This document shows, piece after piece, positions 158 to 64,000 of a stretch of 64,000 nucleotides of DNA. This DNA comes from an uncultured Alphaproteobacteria bacterium (GTDB lineage: Bacteria; Pseudomonadota; Alphaproteobacteria; Rhizobiales; Xanthobacteraceae). Within the stretch, counting starts at the first letter, position 1, and every line of letters begins with the position of its first letter. The translations under genes and the position numbers were made by a program. The notes under the pieces were generated by a model, which saw nothing but the letters and a program-made list of their open reading frames with translations, did no database searches and was not told the origin of the DNA. Location of the stretch: the NCBI GenBank assembly GCA_963815955.1, contig CAWFIQ010000025.1, forward strand, positions 57,020-121,019, in the 5' to 3' direction.

Positions 158-312
158 CCTGACGCAACGTAACGGCAATTCCCGCGATGGTGCACCTAAT
201 TCTCGACGGGTGCAGCAAGCACCCGGCATTCCCTGCTCCCTCTCAGGAGGGACAAGGTTCATGTAAACCTCGGGCAGTGCGCCGCGAGATCGCGAACGCA
301 TATTCAGTCGTC

Positions 313-367
313 GTCACCCGCCTTGTGCGCAATTGCGCACTGGGGCGGGTGACCCAGTATTCCAGAG
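313..367. repeat. Rhizobial REP/RIME-like palindromic intergenic repeat
   Basis: Nested inverted repeats GTCACCCGCC/GGCGGGTGAC and GTGCGC/GCGCAC followed by CCAGTATTCCAGAG; the same core occurs inverted at about 15533-15546. Confidence 0.8.
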
Positions 368-457
368 ACGTTGATGATTGAACCGTTAGGCCGCGGCGTA
401 CTGGGTACCCGCCTTCGCGGGTACGACGGCGTGATTGGCGGCGACGATCGTGCCCCG

Positions 458-796
458 CTATCCCTGCGGCATCACCGAAATCCTCGCGCAATCACGCCGG
501 CCCATCAGCACGCAGTCCTGGGTCTTGCGGAGATCGGCGATGCTCATCGCAAGCCAGATGCCGATCGCGGTCAACGCCACCGTGAAGGCGAGCGCTGCGA
601 CGTTGGCGAGCATCCGATGCCGGAAATCGTCGCCCTCGTCGCGCGGCCGCTCGTAGCGGGACAGGTCGTTCGCCGCTGGCTGCGCCTTGGTTGGGTCGGT
701 TTCTCCCCGTCCGGCGGGTGGATGGTCGGAGGTGCGCGGCCGGAACTTGAGCACGACGTGCTCATCGTCCGAGGTAATGGGCCGCTGGCTTTTCAC
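458..796 (-). CDS. Small membrane-anchored hypothetical protein
   Basis: One hydrophobic helix (ANVAALAFTVALTAIGIWLAMSI) and a C-terminal C-x6-C (DCVLMGRRDC). Confidence 0.65.
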   Translation of the reverse strand: MKSQRPITSDDEHVVLKFRPRTSDHPPAGRGETDPTKAQPAANDLSRYERPRDEGDDFRHRMLANVAALAFTVALTAIGIWLAMSIADLRKTQDCVLMGRRDCARISVMPQG

Positions 797-1082
797 TGCG
801 TTCGTCCGGCGAGAAATCCTGCACCTTTCTTAGCACGCCGGGCGCGCTTCCAACATGAAATGTTGTTGAGTGCGGGGCAGCCATCCCTCCGCGCAACGTC
901 TGATGGAACCTGCTGCGATCGGAGGTCCGTGGCCTTCGGCTTTGGTGGTCCTGGTATGCCTGCCGCGAACTTCGGGTCGCAGCCATGTGAGGGCCCGCAC
1001 CGTCAAGCCATAGTAGACTCCGTTCCGGAGCCATCTGCCGGGTCAGGGCACGAGGCTTGAAGGAAGCAGAGGGGGCAGAACC

Positions 1083-1703
1083 ATGGCCAACACGCGCGAC
1101 CCTATTCTCAAGCCGATCCCGATCCTGTCACTGCGTCCGACCCAGATGACGGTCGGCCTGCGAGAGGTAAAGGAGAAGCGCCAGCGCTGGCGGGAGCACA
1201 AGTCGGAAAAGAAACGCGCCGAACTGCTCGGCAAGCATATGATCCCGGTCGTGCTCGGGCCGGACGAGCACCACTACGTCGTCGACCACCATCATCTGGC
1301 GCGTGCACTGCATGATGAGGGCGTCGAGCATGTCCTGGTCACGGTCATCGGCGATCTCACCATGGTCGAGCGCGAGGCGTTCTGGACCGTGATGGATCAC
1401 AAGCGATGGGCCTATCCCTACGACGCCAAGGGCGAACGCCGGCGGTTCAAGGATCTGCCGAAATCGGTCACCGGCCTCGCAGACGATCCGTTCCGCAGCC
1501 TCGCCGGGGAATTGCGCCGCGTCGGCGGCTTTGCAAAGGACATCACCCCGTTCAGCGAATTCCTGTGGGCGGATTTCCTGCGCCGCAAAATCTCGCGCAA
1601 AAGCGTAGAGGAGAATTTCGAGAAGGCGATGGAGAAGGCGCTCGGCTTTGCCAAGGGCACGGACGCGGTCTATCTGCCGGGCTGGTGCGGGCCGCTCGAT
1701 TAG
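1083..1703 (+). CDS. ParB-like nuclease domain protein (ParBc_2/COG4318 type)
   Basis: LRPTQMTVG, YVVDHHHLARAL and DDPFRSLAG motifs; purine-rich RBS upstream. Confidence 0.85.
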   Translation: MANTRDPILKPIPILSLRPTQMTVGLREVKEKRQRWREHKSEKKRAELLGKHMIPVVLGPDEHHYVVDHHHLARALHDEGVEHVLVTVIGDLTMVEREAFWTVMDHKRWAYPYDAKGERRRFKDLPKSVTGLADDPFRSLAGELRRVGGFAKDITPFSEFLWADFLRRKISRKSVEENFEKAMEKALGFAKGTDAVYLPGWCGPLD

Positions 1704-1717
1704 ACGGCGGCCTACGG

Positions 1718-2203
1718 TCATTTGTCCGATGAAGAGGCCGGAGGCGTTTCCTGCTCGATCTCGACCTTGCCGCCAAGCCGCTGGTGCAGCCAGCGTTCAA
1801 TTCGGCCGCCAACGGTCAAGACCGCGAAGGTGATGACCAATGCGGTGACCACCAATCGCCATTGTCCGAGGCCGCAGACAATTCCGATGCAGGCCGCCAG
1901 CCAGGTGCAGGCGGCACTGGTGAGCCCGCGAACCCTGAAATGACGTCCTGCGTGGACAATGACCCCGGCGCCGAGGAAACCGATCCCGGTCAGGATTCCC
2001 TGAATCACCCGGCTGCCGGCGTCCGAGACGATTTTGACTTCGTCCGAATGGACCATCACCAGCAGCATGGCCGTCGCAAGGCTGACCAGCGCCAGCGTCT
2101 TCAATCCGATCGGCTTGCCGTGCAGATCGCGGTTGAGACCGATCAAGCCGCCCGCGAGCGTGGCGACGCCGAGACGCAATATGATTTCGGTCCAGTCCAG
2201 CAA
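1718..2203 (-). CDS. MgtC/SapB family membrane protein
   Basis: GLIGLNR...GLKT, RVIQGILTGIGFLGAG and GLTSAACTW motifs. Confidence 0.9.
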   Translation of the reverse strand: MLDWTEIILRLGVATLAGGLIGLNRDLHGKPIGLKTLALVSLATAMLLVMVHSDEVKIVSDAGSRVIQGILTGIGFLGAGVIVHAGRHFRVRGLTSAACTWLAACIGIVCGLGQWRLVVTALVITFAVLTVGGRIERWLHQRLGGKVEIEQETPPASSSDK

Positions 2204-2227
2204 CGCGTGAAACCTCCGGGCCTTGAG

Positions 2228-2821
2228 CTACTGTTTCGGCAGCCGCCCCATCATGTAGAACTCGTCGTTCGGGCGCATCGCGGTGACGTTGGCCAGCCGG
2301 TTCGACAGCGCGAAGAACGCCGCGATCGCCGTGATGTCCCAGATGTCGTCGTCGCTGAAGCCGTGGCTTGCGATTTCCGCAAAATCCGCTTCCGAAACCG
2401 TGTTGGCCTCCTGGCTTACCTTCATGGCGAAGTCGAGCATGGCCCGCTGCCGCGGCGTGACGTCGGCCTTGCGGTAGTTGACCGCGATCTGGTCGGCGAT
2501 TTGCGGGTTCTTGGCCCGGATGCGCAGGATCGCGCCATGGGCGATCACGCAGTAATGGCACTGGTTGGCGGCGGACGTCGCCACCACGATCATCTCGCGC
2601 TCGGCCTTGGTCAGCCCGCCGTCCTTTTCCATCAACGCGTCGTGATAGGCGAAGAAGGCGCGAAATTCGTCGGGACGATAAGCCAGCGTCAGGAAGACGT
2701 TCGGGACGAAGCCGGATTTCTCCTGCACCGCGAGGATCCGGGTGCGGATATCCTCCGGCAGCTTGTCGATGGCAGGCGGCTGAAATCGTCTGGGGGCGGG
2801 CTTGGCTGCAGGCTTGGTCAT
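2228..2821 (-). CDS. Peroxidase-related enzyme, AhpD/CMD family
   Basis: EREMIVVATSAANQCHYCVIAHG (CxxC); start moved to the ATG at 2821. Confidence 0.9.
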   Translation of the reverse strand: MTKPAAKPAPRRFQPPAIDKLPEDIRTRILAVQEKSGFVPNVFLTLAYRPDEFRAFFAYHDALMEKDGGLTKAEREMIVVATSAANQCHYCVIAHGAILRIRAKNPQIADQIAVNYRKADVTPRQRAMLDFAMKVSQEANTVSEADFAEIASHGFSDDDIWDITAIAAFFALSNRLANVTAMRPNDEFYMMGRLPKQ

Positions 2822-10473: not shown

Positions 10474-11199
10474 ATGACGCGAAACCCGAATATGCGGGAA
10501 GCCATCCTGAGCGCGGCGGAGCTGTTGTTCTCGACGCGCGGCTTCAATGCCGTGTCGATCCGCGACATCGCGCTGGAAGCGGGCGCCAATCCGGGCAGCA
10601 TCACCTATCACTTCAAGAGCAAGGACGGGCTGCTGCTGGAAATCTACAAGCGCCATTGCGGGCCGATGAACAAGCGCCGCATCGAGTTGCTGGTGGCGGC
10701 ACGGCGCGTACGCGACGTTCAGGACCGGCTGGAGGCGATCGTGCGGGCCTATGTGCAGCCGGCGTTTTCATCCAGCAGCGACCTCGCCGGCGGCGGAGCG
10801 CGGTTCACGCGGCTGCGGGCCGTGATGTCGGCCGAAGGCAACGCCGTGGTGGGCCGCATCATCGCCGAGATTTTCGACGACACTACCCATGCCTTCATCG
10901 AGGCGATCGAGGAAAGCCTGCCGCATCTGCCGCGGACCACGATCGTGTGGCGGTCGCAATTCCTGCTCGGCGCACTCTATTATACCCTCGTCAGCCCGGA
11001 GCGGGTCACGAGGCTGTCGCGCGGCGAAGCCGATGGCGCCGATATGGCGGAAGCGATCGAGCAACTCGTCTCGGCGACGGTCGCCTCGTTGCAGGCGCCC
11101 GATGTCGATCACATCGGCTCCGCGTCCCCTCGGACGAAGCAAGCCCAGCCTCCGGCAAAAGGCGCCGCTGGCAAGCGGAAAGAAAATTCGGCTTCATGA
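10474..11199 (+). CDS. TetR/AcrR family regulator
   Basis: N-terminal HTH AILSAAELLFSTRGFNAVSIRDIA...ITYHFKSK. Confidence 0.93.
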   Translation: MTRNPNMREAILSAAELLFSTRGFNAVSIRDIALEAGANPGSITYHFKSKDGLLLEIYKRHCGPMNKRRIELLVAARRVRDVQDRLEAIVRAYVQPAFSSSSDLAGGGARFTRLRAVMSAEGNAVVGRIIAEIFDDTTHAFIEAIEESLPHLPRTTIVWRSQFLLGALYYTLVSPERVTRLSRGEADGADMAEAIEQLVSATVASLQAPDVDHIGSASPRTKQAQPPAKGAAGKRKENSAS

Positions 11200-11245
11200 A
11201 GTTCGAGGCGCCGTGAAGCGCAACCAAAACACTGCAGAAGGCACC

Positions 11246-12115
11246 ATGCACAAGCCGACGATCCCCGGACCCGATCCCGATACGCGAACGCCGAAATTCA
11301 AACTTCCGGCGCTGGCGTGTGACGCGCATACCCACATCTTCGGCCCCGGTGACAAATACCCGTACGCGCCGGGGCGGCCCTATACGCCGCCCGATGCGCC
11401 GCTGGAGGATTTCCGGGCGCTGCACAAGAAGATCGGGATCGGCCGCGCCGTCATCGTCAACGCCAGCGTGCACGGCACCGACAACCGCGTGGCGCTCGAT
11501 GCCATCGCCGTGAGCAACGGCACCTTTCGTGCCGTCGCCAATATCGACGATACCATTACCGAGCACGGGCTTCGCGAGCTGCATGAAGGCGGCTTCCGCG
11601 GCTGCCGCTTCAACTTCGTGCGCCATCTCGGCGGGGTGCCCGATATGGCGGTCTTTCACCGCATCGTCGCGATGGTCGCGCCGCTCGGCTGGCATATCGA
11701 TCTGCATTTCGACGCGATCGACCTGCCCGAATATGCCGGGATGCTGGCAAAATTGCCGGTGCGTTACACCATCGATCACATGGGGCGCGTCAAGGCGTCC
11801 GACGGCCTCGACCAGCTACCGTTCCGGACGCTGATTGACCTGATGACCCGGGACGAGAAATGCTGGGTCAAGGTGTGCGGCTGCGAGCGGGTATCGTCGG
11901 GCGGACCGCCGTTCCATGACGCGGTGCCTTTTGCTCGCCGTATCATCGAGACCGCGCCCGATCGCGTGATCTGGGGGACCGACTGGCCGCACCCGAACGT
12001 CAAGGTGATGCCGAACGACGGCGATCTGGTCGACCTCATTCCGCTGTTTGCGCCGGAGCTGGATCTGCAGCAGAAGATCCTGGTCGACAATCCGGCGCGG
12101 CTGTTCGAATTTTGA
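11246..12115 (+). CDS. Amidohydrolase_2, 2-pyrone-4,6-dicarboxylate lactonase (LigI)-like
   Basis: CDAHTHIFGP, IDHMGR, VIWGTDWPHPN, ILVDNPARLF. Confidence 0.82.
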   Translation: MHKPTIPGPDPDTRTPKFKLPALACDAHTHIFGPGDKYPYAPGRPYTPPDAPLEDFRALHKKIGIGRAVIVNASVHGTDNRVALDAIAVSNGTFRAVANIDDTITEHGLRELHEGGFRGCRFNFVRHLGGVPDMAVFHRIVAMVAPLGWHIDLHFDAIDLPEYAGMLAKLPVRYTIDHMGRVKASDGLDQLPFRTLIDLMTRDEKCWVKVCGCERVSSGGPPFHDAVPFARRIIETAPDRVIWGTDWPHPNVKVMPNDGDLVDLIPLFAPELDLQQKILVDNPARLFEF

Positions 12116-12128
12116 GGGAGCGCGTGCG

Positions 12129-13133
12129 ATGGCGGACAAACACGAGCGATACACAATGAGCCGGCGCCGCGCGTCGTTCGCCGGGATGGCTGCGCTGGCG
12201 GCGGCATTGTTGCTGCCGCAAATCGCCCACGCGCAAAACTATCCGAACCGGCCGGTGCGGCTGATCCTGCCGTTCGGCGCCGGCGGTGTCGCCGACGTCA
12301 CCGCGCGGCTCGTCACCGAGAAACTCGGCGAAAAGCTTGGTCAGCGCTTCGTCATCGAGAACATGGCGGGAGCGGGGGGTATCACTGCCGCGCGCGCCGT
12401 GCTTTCCGCACCTCCGGACGGCTACACACTGGCGCTGCTGAGCAATGGCACGGCCATCTCGGTATCGTTGTTCAAGAGCCTTGGCTTCAATCCGGTGACC
12501 GATTTCGTTCCGGTTTCGAGCATGGGCTATTTCGACTTCATCTTCGTGACGCAAGCCGGTTCGCCATATCCGACGCTGGCTGAATTCATCAAGGCGGCCA
12601 AGGCAAAGCCCGGCACGCTCAATGTCGGCACCATCAATGTCGGGTCGACCCAGAACCTTTCGGCGCAATTGTTCAAATCGACCGCCGGTGTCGATGTCAC
12701 CATCGTGCCGTTCCGCAGTTCGCCCGATGTGCTGATCGCGCTGCTGCGCGGCGATATCCAGATGGCGATCGAGAATTACAGCGCGGTGCAGTCGCATGTT
12801 GCCGACAAGGCCGCCATCGCCGTGGCGTCTTCGGGCCCGGTCCGCACTTCGTTCCTGCCGGATGTGCCGACGGTGAAGGAGGCGGGCGGCGGCGACTTCG
12901 AGGCGCGGTCCTGGAATGCGATCTTTGCACCCAAGGGCACGCCGCCCGAAGTGGTCGCGACGCTGAACGCCGCGCTGCGCGAGGTGCTCGAGATGCCGGA
13001 GCTCAAGAAGCGCGCACTCGATCTCGGCATCGAGGCCAAGGCAAGCTCGCCTGAGGAAATCCGCGACCGGTTGAAAGCCGATATCGACAAATGGGTTCAG
13101 GTGATCGATCGCGCAGGAATTGCCCTACAATAG
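12129..13133 (+). CDS. Bug/TctC substrate-binding protein
   Basis: YPNRPVRLILPFGAGGVADVTAR; C-terminal Bug signature. Confidence 0.92.
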   Translation: MADKHERYTMSRRRASFAGMAALAAALLLPQIAHAQNYPNRPVRLILPFGAGGVADVTARLVTEKLGEKLGQRFVIENMAGAGGITAARAVLSAPPDGYTLALLSNGTAISVSLFKSLGFNPVTDFVPVSSMGYFDFIFVTQAGSPYPTLAEFIKAAKAKPGTLNVGTINVGSTQNLSAQLFKSTAGVDVTIVPFRSSPDVLIALLRGDIQMAIENYSAVQSHVADKAAIAVASSGPVRTSFLPDVPTVKEAGGGDFEARSWNAIFAPKGTPPEVVATLNAALREVLEMPELKKRALDLGIEAKASSPEEIRDRLKADIDKWVQVIDRAGIALQ

Positions 13134-36625: not shown

Positions 36626-36651
36626 TGGCTGGGGAACTAGGATTCCCAACC
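36626..36651 (-). mobile_element. att site: duplicated 3' end of a tRNA (tRNA-Gln-like)
   Basis: Reverse complement GGTTGGGAATCCTAGTTCCCCAGCCA = near-canonical T-loop (GGTTCGAATCC), acceptor arm and CCA; Gln identity recalled from memory. Confidence 0.75.
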
Positions 36652-56879: not shown

Positions 56880-57395
56880 GTGGCGAAAAAACCTAAGAAG
56901 CTTGAAGACCTTTTTCATGAAACACTGAAGGACATCTACTTCGCTGAGAACAAGATTCTTAAAACCCTTCCGAAAATGGCAAAGGCGGCGCAGTCGAAGG
57001 AGTTGAGGGCCGCTTTCGTCCAGCATGAGCGAGAGACCAAGGGACAGGTTAAGCGTCTCGATCGGGTCTTCAAAATTATCGGCAAGCCTGCCAAGGGGAA
57101 GACCTGCGCTGCCATCAACGGGATCACGGAAGAGGGATCCGAGATCATGAAGGACTTTAAGGGAATGCCAGCCCTCGATGCCGGGCTTCTCGCTGCCGCA
57201 CAGGCCGTCGAACACTATGAGATTTCGCGGTATGGGACGCTCGCCACGTGGGCCGACGAGCTCGGGTACGGAGAGGCGGTCGACCTCCTCAAAGCCACAC
57301 TGCAGGAAGAGAAGAACACGGATAAAACCTTAACTGGCATTGCCAAATCGGTGGTCAATATCGAAGCCGAAGAGGCCGAGAGAGTAGACGCCTAA
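56880..57395 (+). CDS. yciF: Ferritin-like DUF892 protein
   Basis: LKDIYFAE, HERET, AAAQAVEHYEISRYGTL, EEKNTD; GGAAC-N16-GGTT at 56828-56852. Confidence 0.93.
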   Translation: MAKKPKKLEDLFHETLKDIYFAENKILKTLPKMAKAAQSKELRAAFVQHERETKGQVKRLDRVFKIIGKPAKGKTCAAINGITEEGSEIMKDFKGMPALDAGLLAAAQAVEHYEISRYGTLATWADELGYGEAVDLLKATLQEEKNTDKTLTGIAKSVVNIEAEEAERVDA

Positions 57396-62214: not shown

Positions 62215-62970
62215 GCGACCTTCTTCTACCTTCCCAACTTCATGACCCGGCGCTGGTTCAATTAACTACGGCCGAAGGTACTCTTTAATTCAAACTGAGC
62301 AGGTCCCAAGCCTGTAGATCGCGAGATCCAAAGGTATGGACCTAGGTACTCGATCGGCAAGTAGCCGCAGCGGCTGATATCGCCGGCGATGAGCGTCGAT
62401 AGCCAAATTTGAAAGGACAAGACGGCGCCTCTCGCCCCTCGATTGCCTGCCGGTATCCTAATGGTGGCGCTGTGCCGATATCCATTGAGCTGTCGTCCTA
62501 CGGCGGGATGATGCGCAACAGTGACGTCCTTTCCGGCGGACTATCGGGAGTTTTCAAACCAGGCGTTCCCAACGCTAATGCGGTCACCAGCAGCAGGACG
62601 CTCGCGCAGATAATCTTGAGGTAAACATGCTCCATTGGCTGCTAACCGGCCAAAGTAGTACACGTTCCTGACATAAGGGCGTCAGCAGCTGAAACTTGGT
62701 GTCCGTTGGTCGGCAGAGGCAACGACGGTCGGATCCAGACTATCCTGAAAATGTAAAGTTCGATTGGCCGCTACCAGTTTGGCGGACACGATACAGCTTT
62801 GTACCCAAGCCGTGGAGAGGTCGCCCCGCTCAATTAGGACTGTCGAAGAGCTGGGACGGCAGGCGGTTACCGCATCTGGCGCCGGGAGAACCGGAAAGCG
62901 GCATTGCTCAGAGTGGTCAAATCACCACCACCCAGCCGCAGTGTAGCCCGCCGAATGTTCTCGTCTGGCA

Positions 62971-63381
62971 TCATCGCAAAGCGACTTCGATGGCCTCGGC
63001 AAGCCGCTCGATCAGAAATGGCTTTTGCAGCACCGCATGATCGCTGAATGAGTCAGGGACCCCCGCTGCACCATAGCCGCTCGCAAATATGAACGGGATC
63101 CCGCGGCTGCTGACGATCTCTGCTACGGGATCGATCTTGGAGCCGCTTAGGTTGATGTCAAGAATCGCAAATTCGAAAGTCGCCGTTTGTGCCAAGCGTA
63201 ACGCGTCGGCAATATTGCTCGCTTCTCCCGAGACCGAATGACCTAGCTCTTCAATCATCTCCGCGATCATCATGCGTATCAAGGCTTCATCTTCAACCAA
63301 TAAGACGGACACCAAGCGTCGTTTGATTTCCGTCAAAGGTTGTTCCTCGATGCCCCTAGGAGAGCCCGCCAGGGATGGCAT
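62971..63381 (-). CDS. Single-domain response regulator with FATGUY-type motif
   Basis: VLLVEDE, AILDINL, PFIFASGY, LQKPF. Confidence 0.9.
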   Translation of the reverse strand: MPSLAGSPRGIEEQPLTEIKRRLVSVLLVEDEALIRMMIAEMIEELGHSVSGEASNIADALRLAQTATFEFAILDINLSGSKIDPVAEIVSSRGIPFIFASGYGAAGVPDSFSDHAVLQKPFLIERLAEAIEVALR

Positions 63382-63423
63382 TTAACGGTGCTGGTCTCGC
63401 AGCGTGATCTGGGCTGAAGTCCA

Positions 63424-64000
63424 TTAACGAAGTAGAAGTTCCTTGATGCGCGTAGCAAGGCCATCCATCGCAAATGGTTTGGTGAGGATCGCCATACCGG
63501 AATCTAGTCCACCGGCCCCGATCGCCGCTTTTTCAGCGTAACCTGTAATGAATAGCACCTTTAATTTGGGACGCGCTGTTCGGCCGAAATCCGCTAGTTG
63601 CCGGCCATTCATGCCACCCGGCAAGCCTACGTCGGTGACGAGGAGGTCGATCCGTGTGTCCGAGCGCAAGACCTGAAGCGCGCTGCTGCCATCAGAGGCT
63701 TCAATTGCCGTGTACCCAAGTTCGGCAAGAACCTCGCCGACCAACATGCGGACTGAGGGTTCGTCGTCGACGATAAGTACGGATTCGCCTGCGCCAGCGC
63801 GGGGCGCCGACGTGAAATCGGCGGCCTCGTCTGCGGCCGTTGCCTCCTCGGTGTGTCTGGGAAGAAAAAGGTAGATTGTTGTACCTTTTCCCTCGGCGGA
63901 CTCGATTCGCACCTGGCCACCGGATTGCTTCGCGAACCCGTAGATCATCGATAGGCCCAAGCCAGTGCCCTGGCCGAGAGGCTTAGTCGTATAAAAGGGA
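63424..64000 (-). CDS. Hybrid sensor histidine kinase/receiver (C-terminal part; 5' end outside the window)
   Basis: G2 box GQGTGLGLSMIYGFAKQSGG, receiver VLIVDDE, LLVTDVGLPGG, VLFITGY, TKPF. Confidence 0.92.
   Translation of the reverse strand, partial: PFYTTKPLGQGTGLGLSMIYGFAKQSGGQVRIESAEGKGTTIYLFLPRHTEEATAADEAADFTSAPRAGAGESVLIVDDEPSVRMLVGEVLAELGYTAIEASDGSSALQVLRSDTRIDLLVTDVGLPGGMNGRQLADFGRTARPKLKVLFITGYAEKAAIGAGGLDSGMAILTKPFAMDGLATRIKELLLR

Follow-up and report, generated by a model that had tools for sequence, protein, structure and literature searches.

A FATGUY-class receiver gene at the end of a Che-like operon in an uncultured Xanthobacteraceae bacterium may link a sensor array to stress signalling

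FATGUY receivers are regarded as promiscuous hubs of phosphorylation that join the general stress response to other behaviours, yet the kinases and signals acting upstream of them have been defined in few cases. In Caulobacter crescentus, the single-domain receiver MrrA takes phosphate from many HWE/HisKA2 kinases and, besides these, from the classical HisKA kinase CC2874, whose C-terminal receiver (REC) domain is dispensable for the transfer; phosphorylated MrrA passes its phosphate to PhyK and LovK, and PhyK phosphorylates PhyR (PMC5964349). Phosphate on SdrG, which is fed by the Pak kinases, is relayed by PhyT to PhyR (PMC5898713), and FATGUY receivers are viewed as phosphotransfer intermediaries (PMC9981736). 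A comparable arrangement within a Che-like operon is Che3 of Rhodospirillum centenum, where the single-domain receiver CheY3 is phosphorylated by an operon-encoded sensor kinase and not by CheA (PMC3868531). Here we analyse a receiver gene with the FATGUY motif and the hybrid histidine kinase gene beside it, located at the end of a 64,000-nucleotide stretch of DNA (the window) from an uncultured Xanthobacteraceae bacterium (GCA_963815955.1, a 31-contig genome). The window covers positions 57,020 to 121,019 of contig CAWFIQ010000025.1 (C25:57020-121019), and the analysis included the remaining 12 kb of this contig past the window (L002).

The receiver gene occupies window positions 62971-63381 on the minus strand and follows the kinase gene (63424-64000, minus strand). 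The window contains the C-terminal 191 of the 775 aa of the kinase, and the gene extends to window-equivalent position 65751 (L002 1444-3771). The original prediction of a single-domain receiver with PFIFASGY directly 3' of a hybrid kinase on the same strand was confirmed by open reading frame (ORF) calls and Pfam. The spacer between the genes (63382-63423, minus strand) measures 42 nt from the kinase stop to the receiver ATG, or 87 nt to an alternative TTG start. There is no terminator-like site in this spacer, and thus the kinase and receiver genes are probably co-transcribed. Among the 11 genes of a Che-like operon, the kinase is the last one that is conserved. On balance, we favour the explanation that the locus comprises an optional FATGUY receiver ending a Che-like operon, which would be served by the hybrid kinase of that operon and would act as a phosphoryl shuttle. 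As a protein, the receiver adds one more member to a known class; what is new is its arrangement at the end of a Che-like operon. In a full-text literature search we found no published study of this operon type and no description of a FATGUY receiver gene placed, as an optional last gene, behind a Che-like operon whose final conserved gene encodes a HisKA hybrid kinase.

The likely start of the receiver is the TTG at 63336, giving 121 aa, as GAGGA is found 7 nt upstream and the same start is used in the closest homolog, at locus L013. Numbering here follows the 136-aa frame from the ATG at 63381. The peptide IPFIFASGY corresponds to residues 95-103, within which PFIFASGY (residues 96-103; codons read from the sequence at 63073-63096, minus strand) represents the PFxFATG[G/Y] motif of beta4 and the next loop, with Ser replacing Thr at the phosphoryl-coordinating S/T position. 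The phosphorylation site is intact and consists of an acidic pocket (E30/D31), the predicted phospho-acceptor Asp75 in AILDINL (codon 63157-63159, minus strand, by alignment to the Sma0114/SdrG acceptor region) and Lys120-P121 (QKPF). An alignment of 55 receiver sequences, gathered partly with the PFIFASGY peptide as search pattern and thus biased in its prevalence of Ser, shows D31, D75, K120 and P121 as well as P96, F97, F99, G102 and Y103 to be invariant. Pfam detects one Response_reg domain (residues 26-131 of 136) and no other domain. Within the 6.85-Mb genome, PFIFA[ST]GY in a receiver occurs in just two of 36,688 six-frame ORFs, namely the one at 62971-63381 and one on contig C13, so the motif is no chance match.

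We assign the receiver with high confidence to the FATGUY class (MrrA/SdrG/Sma0114-type), and the original prediction is borne out here by sequence matches, phylogeny and predicted fold. The best NCBIfam matches are the receiver part of PhyR (2e-18) and PRK13435.1-2 (2e-17), with CheY, CpdR and the rest 8-14 orders weaker. A phmmer search against the PDB returned Sma0114 (1.5e-26), SdrG (1.1e-20), Rv1626 (1e-12), PhyR (~1e-9) and CheY (3e-06 or weaker), and the identity of the receiver is 47% with Sma0114, 42% with SdrG and 32% with the PhyR receiver of this genome. In a maximum-likelihood tree of 95 sequences it falls in a clade with Sma0114, SdrG and PhyR-REC (support 95/95), apart from the genome's CheY and CheB-REC, the operon's 157-aa REC protein and the hybrid kinase's own REC. 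The original prediction would have been contradicted by clustering with CheY, DivK or CpdR types; of these types CheY and CpdR were compared, and the receiver groups with neither.

The structural evidence is in agreement with this assignment. An AlphaFold2 (AF2) model built with 55 homologs (mean predicted local distance difference test score, pLDDT, 88.8) has the (beta-alpha)5 fold and is predicted to form only a 4-residue helix (104-107) at the place of alpha4, in the lowest-confidence block of the domain. Foldseek against the PDB ranks SdrG first (E 2e-10, TM 0.87 normalised to SdrG, root-mean-square deviation 1.9 A), followed by PhyR receiver domains. The beta5 switch position is non-aromatic, with Val three residues before Lys120 (AVLQKPF), the same residue as in SdrG (PVLQKPF) and Leu in Sma0114 (PLLTKPF). 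The lack of a beta5 aromatic switch and of Y-T coupling is a described FATGUY trait (PMC5964349, PMC9981736). The variant FxSGY is accepted as FATGUY-like and is also found in CckA-Rec and CpdR (PMC9981736), so the CpdR type was checked explicitly. With the CpdR model the receiver reaches 26 bits, where the cut-off is 180 bits and the real CpdR of the genome (contig C10) scores 188; a CpdR identity was therefore rejected. A PhyR identity was also rejected, given that the PhyR model matches in its receiver part only (positions 131-252), with 67 bits against a 240-bit cut-off. The genome's true PhyR, on contig C1, scores 360 bits with this model, and its N-terminal sigma-like domain is not present in the receiver ORF.

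The second FATGUY receiver of the genome (L173 7260-7637; C13:90259-90636, minus strand) is a 125-aa protein with PFIFATGY encoded in kinase-free surroundings. This orphan paralog is 52% identical to the operon-linked receiver and is sister to the operon-linked receiver of locus L097. It is probably a housekeeping SdrG/MrrA-type gene.

The kinase ORF in the window (63424-63999, minus strand) runs past the window end and encodes the end of a HATPase_c domain and a REC domain (Pfam), as expected for the C-terminus of a hybrid kinase. Sensor domains had been placed beyond the window, and reading of the upstream sequence with Pfam shows that they exist. The full kinase contains three PAS domains, HisKA (H-box LAHDFNNLL), HATPase_c and a C-terminal REC with FITGY, and it has no HWE_HK or HisKA_2 match. 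The HWE/HisKA_2 type with HRxxN that is typical of, though not defining for, partner kinases of FATGUY receivers is thus absent from the adjoining kinase, which is of the HisKA type with the H-box AHDFNN. NCBIfam matches to the C-terminal part of the kinase are PRK13557 (1.5e-51) and CckA (7e-45). The REC of the kinase (63424-63999; L002 1444-2000) appears to be of the CckA-Rec 'intermediary' kind, as indicated by FITGY and the CckA-type match. This likeness suggests a further Hpt/ChpT-like partner, and no gene for such a partner is encoded in the operon.

Annotation of L002 with Pfam and NCBIfam gives the gene order, 5' to 3' on one strand, as methyl-accepting chemotaxis protein (MCP), CheW, CheB, HEAT, CheR, CheY, CheA, REC, CheC/X and kinase, with short or overlapping gene junctions. 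The core Che set of MCP, CheW, CheA, CheB and CheR is therefore found together in one operon. The domains of CheA are Hpt, dimerisation, HATPase and CheW, without REC, and the receivers other than the FATGUY protein are a 129-aa CheY and a 157-aa REC. The CheW is multi-domain (triple), and the MCP looks soluble and reaches the contig end. The cheR gene is split in two ORFs (L002 7706-8561; C25:126705-127560) by one additional base, an A near L002 8063, when compared with the intact genes of L093, L013 and L094. Also, cheW (L002 10236-11700) has two 1-nt insertions, at about 11695 and 11487, where L093 and L094 have a single 507-aa frame. These insertions may be assembly errors. If real, they would break the chemoreceptor part here and leave the kinase and receiver intact.

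To describe the distribution of the operon we used the CheC/X-like protein as query, with one genome per species, and kept the 80 best loci (60-97% identity). They occur in Bradyrhizobium, Microvirga, Phenylobacterium, Caulobacter, Ancylobacter, Xanthobacter, Rhizomicrobium, Reyranella, Sphingomonas, Novosphingobium and others, and the gene order from MCP to kinase is identical across the 80 loci wherever the contig allows. The operon is a self-contained accessory cassette with a patchy distribution within the genus, where it was found in 12 of 151 sampled genomes (~8%), and its close type in five, this genome included. A FATGUY gene directly follows the kinase on the same strand in six of the approximately 80 loci (this genome, L013, L014, L097, L098 and L140). 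The closest operon, L093, encodes proteins 93-97% identical to those studied here and has no FATGUY gene in the ~1.8 kb available past its kinase.

The receivers and the operons that carry them have diverged to different extents. Relative to this genome, L014 has a receiver 66% identical (blastp) and a kinase 40% identical (tblastn), and L097 has a receiver 60% identical and a kinase 79% identical. Under the approximately unbiased (AU) test, monophyly of the operon-linked receivers is rejected, both for all six (p 0.0002) and for the five of Bradyrhizobium type (p 0.0005). FATGUY genes have thus been joined to the 3' end of the operon, or lost from it, more than once. It would be difficult to account for such repeated gain or loss if FATGUY receivers and this family of kinases did not act jointly.

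Great variety is seen in the gene that follows the kinase, with LysR, GGDEF-EAL, CHASE3 hybrid kinase, hydrolase and transporter genes among the examples. In Phenylobacterium and relatives (L110, L112, L113, L114 and L158), a second CheC/CheX-like phosphatase gene follows the kinase. In two Sphingomonas species, the gene directly after the Che-operon kinase encodes an EcfG-like ECF sigma factor (L166 12763-13485 and L168 6645-7307), which scores 124 and 121 bits, respectively, to the EcfG of this genome. Each of these sigma genes is preceded by its own GGAAC...CGTT motif, GGAACGGTTTC(T/C)TTTCCGAAACGTT. One locus, L170, has an HWE kinase gene at this position. The sigma and HWE kinase genes are other stress-response-type additions at the position taken here by the receiver.

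The locus resembles MrrA and CC2874 in combining a FATGUY receiver with a HisKA kinase of the classical type bearing a REC at its C-terminus. The premise of the original prediction that a FATGUY receiver can relay phosphate to PhyR is documented for such a hybrid kinase, with CC2874 and MrrA acting through PhyK/LovK (PMC5964349). In contrast to that system, the genes here are adjacent and at the end of a Che-like operon, and the pair is likened to MrrA and CC2874 by description. The orphan paralog on C13 may be the MrrA equivalent of this organism. SdrG is of the same class, and the host HWE kinase next to phyR could play the role of PhyT. However, the Pak kinases that feed SdrG are of the HWE/HisKA_2 type and are encoded at scattered places in the genome, whereas the neighbouring kinase here is HisKA-type. 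The motif of SdrG is PFVFATGG, for which the receiver has Ser in place of Thr and a final Tyr in place of Gly. Sma0114 of Sinorhizobium meliloti is likewise a receiver-only protein beside its kinase, with alpha4 missing and no beta5 aromatic residue, but its partner Sma0113 is an HWE kinase and its known role lies in catabolite repression mediated by succinate and in the production of polyhydroxybutyrate (PMC5964349).

The Che3 system of R. centenum, in which signalling runs from CheA3 to CheS3 to CheY3 (PMC3868531), is a non-motility Che-like operon with an extra PAS kinase and a single-domain receiver. We liken the operon to Che3 by gene content, and a non-flagellar output would follow here by analogy. 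In Che3, CheA ends in a REC and phosphorylates a sensor kinase whose REC is N-terminal, whereas here CheA is without REC and the kinase REC is C-terminal; the locus is therefore analogous to Che3 and not a member of the Che3 type. Compared with Che3, this operon has additional genes for a HEAT protein and a CheC/X-like phosphatase as well as for two more receivers, and its terminal receiver is of the FATGUY class and optional. Two other candidates were set aside. The che3 of B. diazoefficiens is probably a different cluster, as it is without a cheY ortholog and the species is outside the 80 best loci. WelA of Sphingomonas was dropped as a homolog of the operon kinase, having been described as membrane-bound and CckA-like, without Che context.

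In the mechanism that we propose, the hybrid kinase would integrate its PAS inputs and perhaps CheA-derived phosphate received on its REC. Phosphate would be transferred directly from the His of the dimerisation and histidine phosphotransfer (DHp) domain to Asp75 of the receiver, in competition with the kinase's own C-terminal REC. The output-less receiver would then diffuse as a phosphoryl shuttle, passing phosphate to other kinase-like phosphotransferases or draining it from them. The candidate entry point to the stress response is the CHASE-HWE kinase beside phyR-nepR-ecfG on contig C1, through which the PAS and chemoreceptor inputs of the cassette could reach the host's general stress response. 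The adjoining kinase is likely to be the phosphodonor of the receiver. That the phosphate goes on to reach PhyR is a more tentative proposal, possible but somewhat doubtful. A stress-response input is plausible given the precedent of CC2874 and MrrA in Caulobacter, and in this manner the receiver may link the sensor array to stress signalling. We infer all functional steps of this pathway by analogy, and they form a clean and testable hypothesis.

The locus provides a defined, genetically linked kinase-receiver pair, in which the kinase comes from a widespread Che-like operon. If the proposal is true, chemoreceptor-array signalling would be joined to stress-sigma control, with an accessory cassette plugging a new sensory channel into the regulon of the host. 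If it is untrue, the locus still shows that a family of HisKA hybrid kinases has recruited FATGUY receivers more than once, which suggests a partner range wider than HWE/HisKA_2 kinases.

Several observations weigh against a role of the pair in stress signalling. About 74 of the 80 operons are without a FATGUY receiver, and thus the main output of the cassette does not need it. The adjoining kinase is HisKA-type, yet only 8 of the 80 closest FATGUY homologs lie beside HisKA hybrids (mostly in Bradyrhizobium), with 49 orphans and 23 beside HRVKN-type HWE/HisKA_2 kinases. There is no PhyR, NepR or EcfG gene within 10 kb of these 80 homologs, and none on contig C25. No EcfG-type promoter was found before the receiver, before the kinase or, in L002, before the operon; upstream of the MCP, where the contig end cuts the region here, none is conserved in the 80 relatives. 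EcfG motifs downstream of the FATGUY-bearing operons (3, 0, 0, 2, 2 and 0) are not significantly enriched over a background mean of 0.42. In addition, the genome already has the orphan paralog on C13, a likelier housekeeping SdrG/MrrA equivalent, and with the cheR and cheW insertions present in the assembly the upstream array may be broken. Finally, the closest solved relative, Sma0114, is known for catabolite repression and not for the stress response (PMC5964349).

The DNA around the pair is mosaic and accessory in character. The operon DNA has a GC content of 0.56-0.615 and the DNA holding the pair 0.55-0.61, against a genome mean of ~0.63, and in this they are like the window beyond 34 kb. 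Four strict EcfG motifs (GGAAC-N15-18-CGTT) are found in the window, all at 46-59 kb, and there are none in L002. A relaxed motif, GGAAC-N16-GGTT (62644-62668, minus strand), is located ~300 nt past the receiver stop and is directed away from the receiver. Lying outside the kinase-receiver unit, this motif marks where a neighbouring block of stress genes carrying EcfG-type promoters begins. At the start of the next-numbered contig, C26 (L176; C26:1-8000), we identified a DUF6538 integrase-like gene (312-2129, minus strand; a 606-aa stop-to-stop frame) and a tRNA-Gln(CTG) gene (2223-2296, minus strand). The last 20 nt of this tRNA gene match a relic at window positions 36626-36651 in the same orientation, and one att-bounded element could thus hold both sides. 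Such an element, of at least 41 kb, could include a MOBQ gene, the EcfG-promoter block and the Che cassette, across a C25-C26 junction that is unassembled and at which the end of C25 and the start of C26 do not overlap. The pair probably lies in this composite tRNA-Gln island, which would span the unassembled contig gap. The integrase of the island is found in 2 of 12 operon-bearing genomes, with no general association, and there are no tRNA genes within 20 kb on either side of the operon locus of Bradyrhizobium sp. ma5.

At L097 (13641-20357; Bradyrhizobium sp. SZCCT0428), three strict EcfG-type motifs come after the FATGUY gene, together with a gene for a small secreted protein rich in Gly and Tyr and a CsbD-like gene. 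This layout resembles that of the window and is statistically indistinguishable from background.

One alternative is that the kinase and receiver are a dedicated stress sensor of the island, acquired together with the EcfG-promoter block and phosphorylating PhyR directly or through a relay. The low GC of the pair, its contiguity with the EcfG-promoter block, the matching tRNA-Gln and integrase-like gene on C26, the similar sequence of genes at L097 and the precedent of the relay from CC2874 through MrrA and PhyK to PhyR all speak for it, but we consider it unlikely. The operon with its kinase forms a cassette of its own, which occurs in about 80 species between flanks that are unrelated, and synteny with L013 and L014 ends exactly at the receiver stop codon, 62971, past which the flanks of the Bradyrhizobium operons have nothing in common with the window and offer no conserved flank to define an empty site. 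The EcfG motif counts at FATGUY-bearing operons and the gap between C25 and C26 also stand against it. The original prediction had suggested here a new sensory channel belonging to the island and triggering the island's own EcfG regulon. This part is not supported: the kinase is the terminal gene of an operon present in ~80 species without the island, the receiver is a sporadic addition, and the genome's only PhyR-NepR-EcfG locus is on contig C1, beside the CHASE-HWE kinase, so that the island has no PhyR, NepR or EcfG of its own and no EcfG promoter precedes the pair. In our reading, the pair reached the island within an independent, widespread cassette, rather than having been assembled as a sensor for the stress genes beside it. 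A broader version, in which signals pass from the Che-like array through the hybrid kinase, the FATGUY receiver and a PhyT/PhyK-type HWE kinase to PhyR as a horizontally transferable 'sensor plus regulon' package in a tRNA-Gln island of this Bradyrhizobium with EcfG-promoter genes, and the Sphingomonas sigma gene and HWE kinase at the same position are alternative wirings, is speculative and rather improbable.

The main alternative to phosphate reaching PhyR is that the receiver is merely a sink or buffer, tuning the relay from the kinase to its REC and passing no phosphate to stress components. It is single-domain, output-less and dispensable in most operons, and the CckA-Rec-like REC of the kinase suggests a separate multistep relay. 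Tuning of phosphate flow is moreover a theme of the cassette, with its CheC/X-like phosphatase and two other single-domain receivers, and with the second CheX-like gene that Phenylobacterium operons add at the receiver's position; LovK with its receiver LovR, which drain phosphoryl groups from MrrA, are a documented sink (PMC5964349). However, the characterised FATGUY receivers with phosphotransfer assays, MrrA and SdrG, all shuttle phosphate onward, and repeated recruitment of the FATGUY class over any CheY-like receiver suggests a specific downstream partner, which makes a pure sink improbable to us. Decay of the cassette in this genome, leaving the pair as a non-functional or orphaned remnant, is very improbable. 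The 1-nt insertion in cheR and the two in cheW, relative to intact L093, L094 and L013, and the location in mosaic accessory DNA would fit decay, but neither the kinase (775 aa) nor the receiver is truncated and both retain every catalytic residue, and a kinase with three PAS domains could sense signals without an array. The shuttle served by the operon kinase is thus the reading that we retain.

The surroundings of the FATGUY gene at L013, which holds the closest homolog, were also inspected. There (10548-12684), the receiver is followed by an alpha/beta hydrolase, RsbQ-like by eye and matched by Pfam to generic hydrolase folds, and by a PAS-HisKA kinase. Further on, sequence suggests an insertion sequence (IS)-like transposase, an Hsp20-like ORF and a Gly/Tyr-rich small protein, giving this locus a mosaic, stress-flavoured flank.

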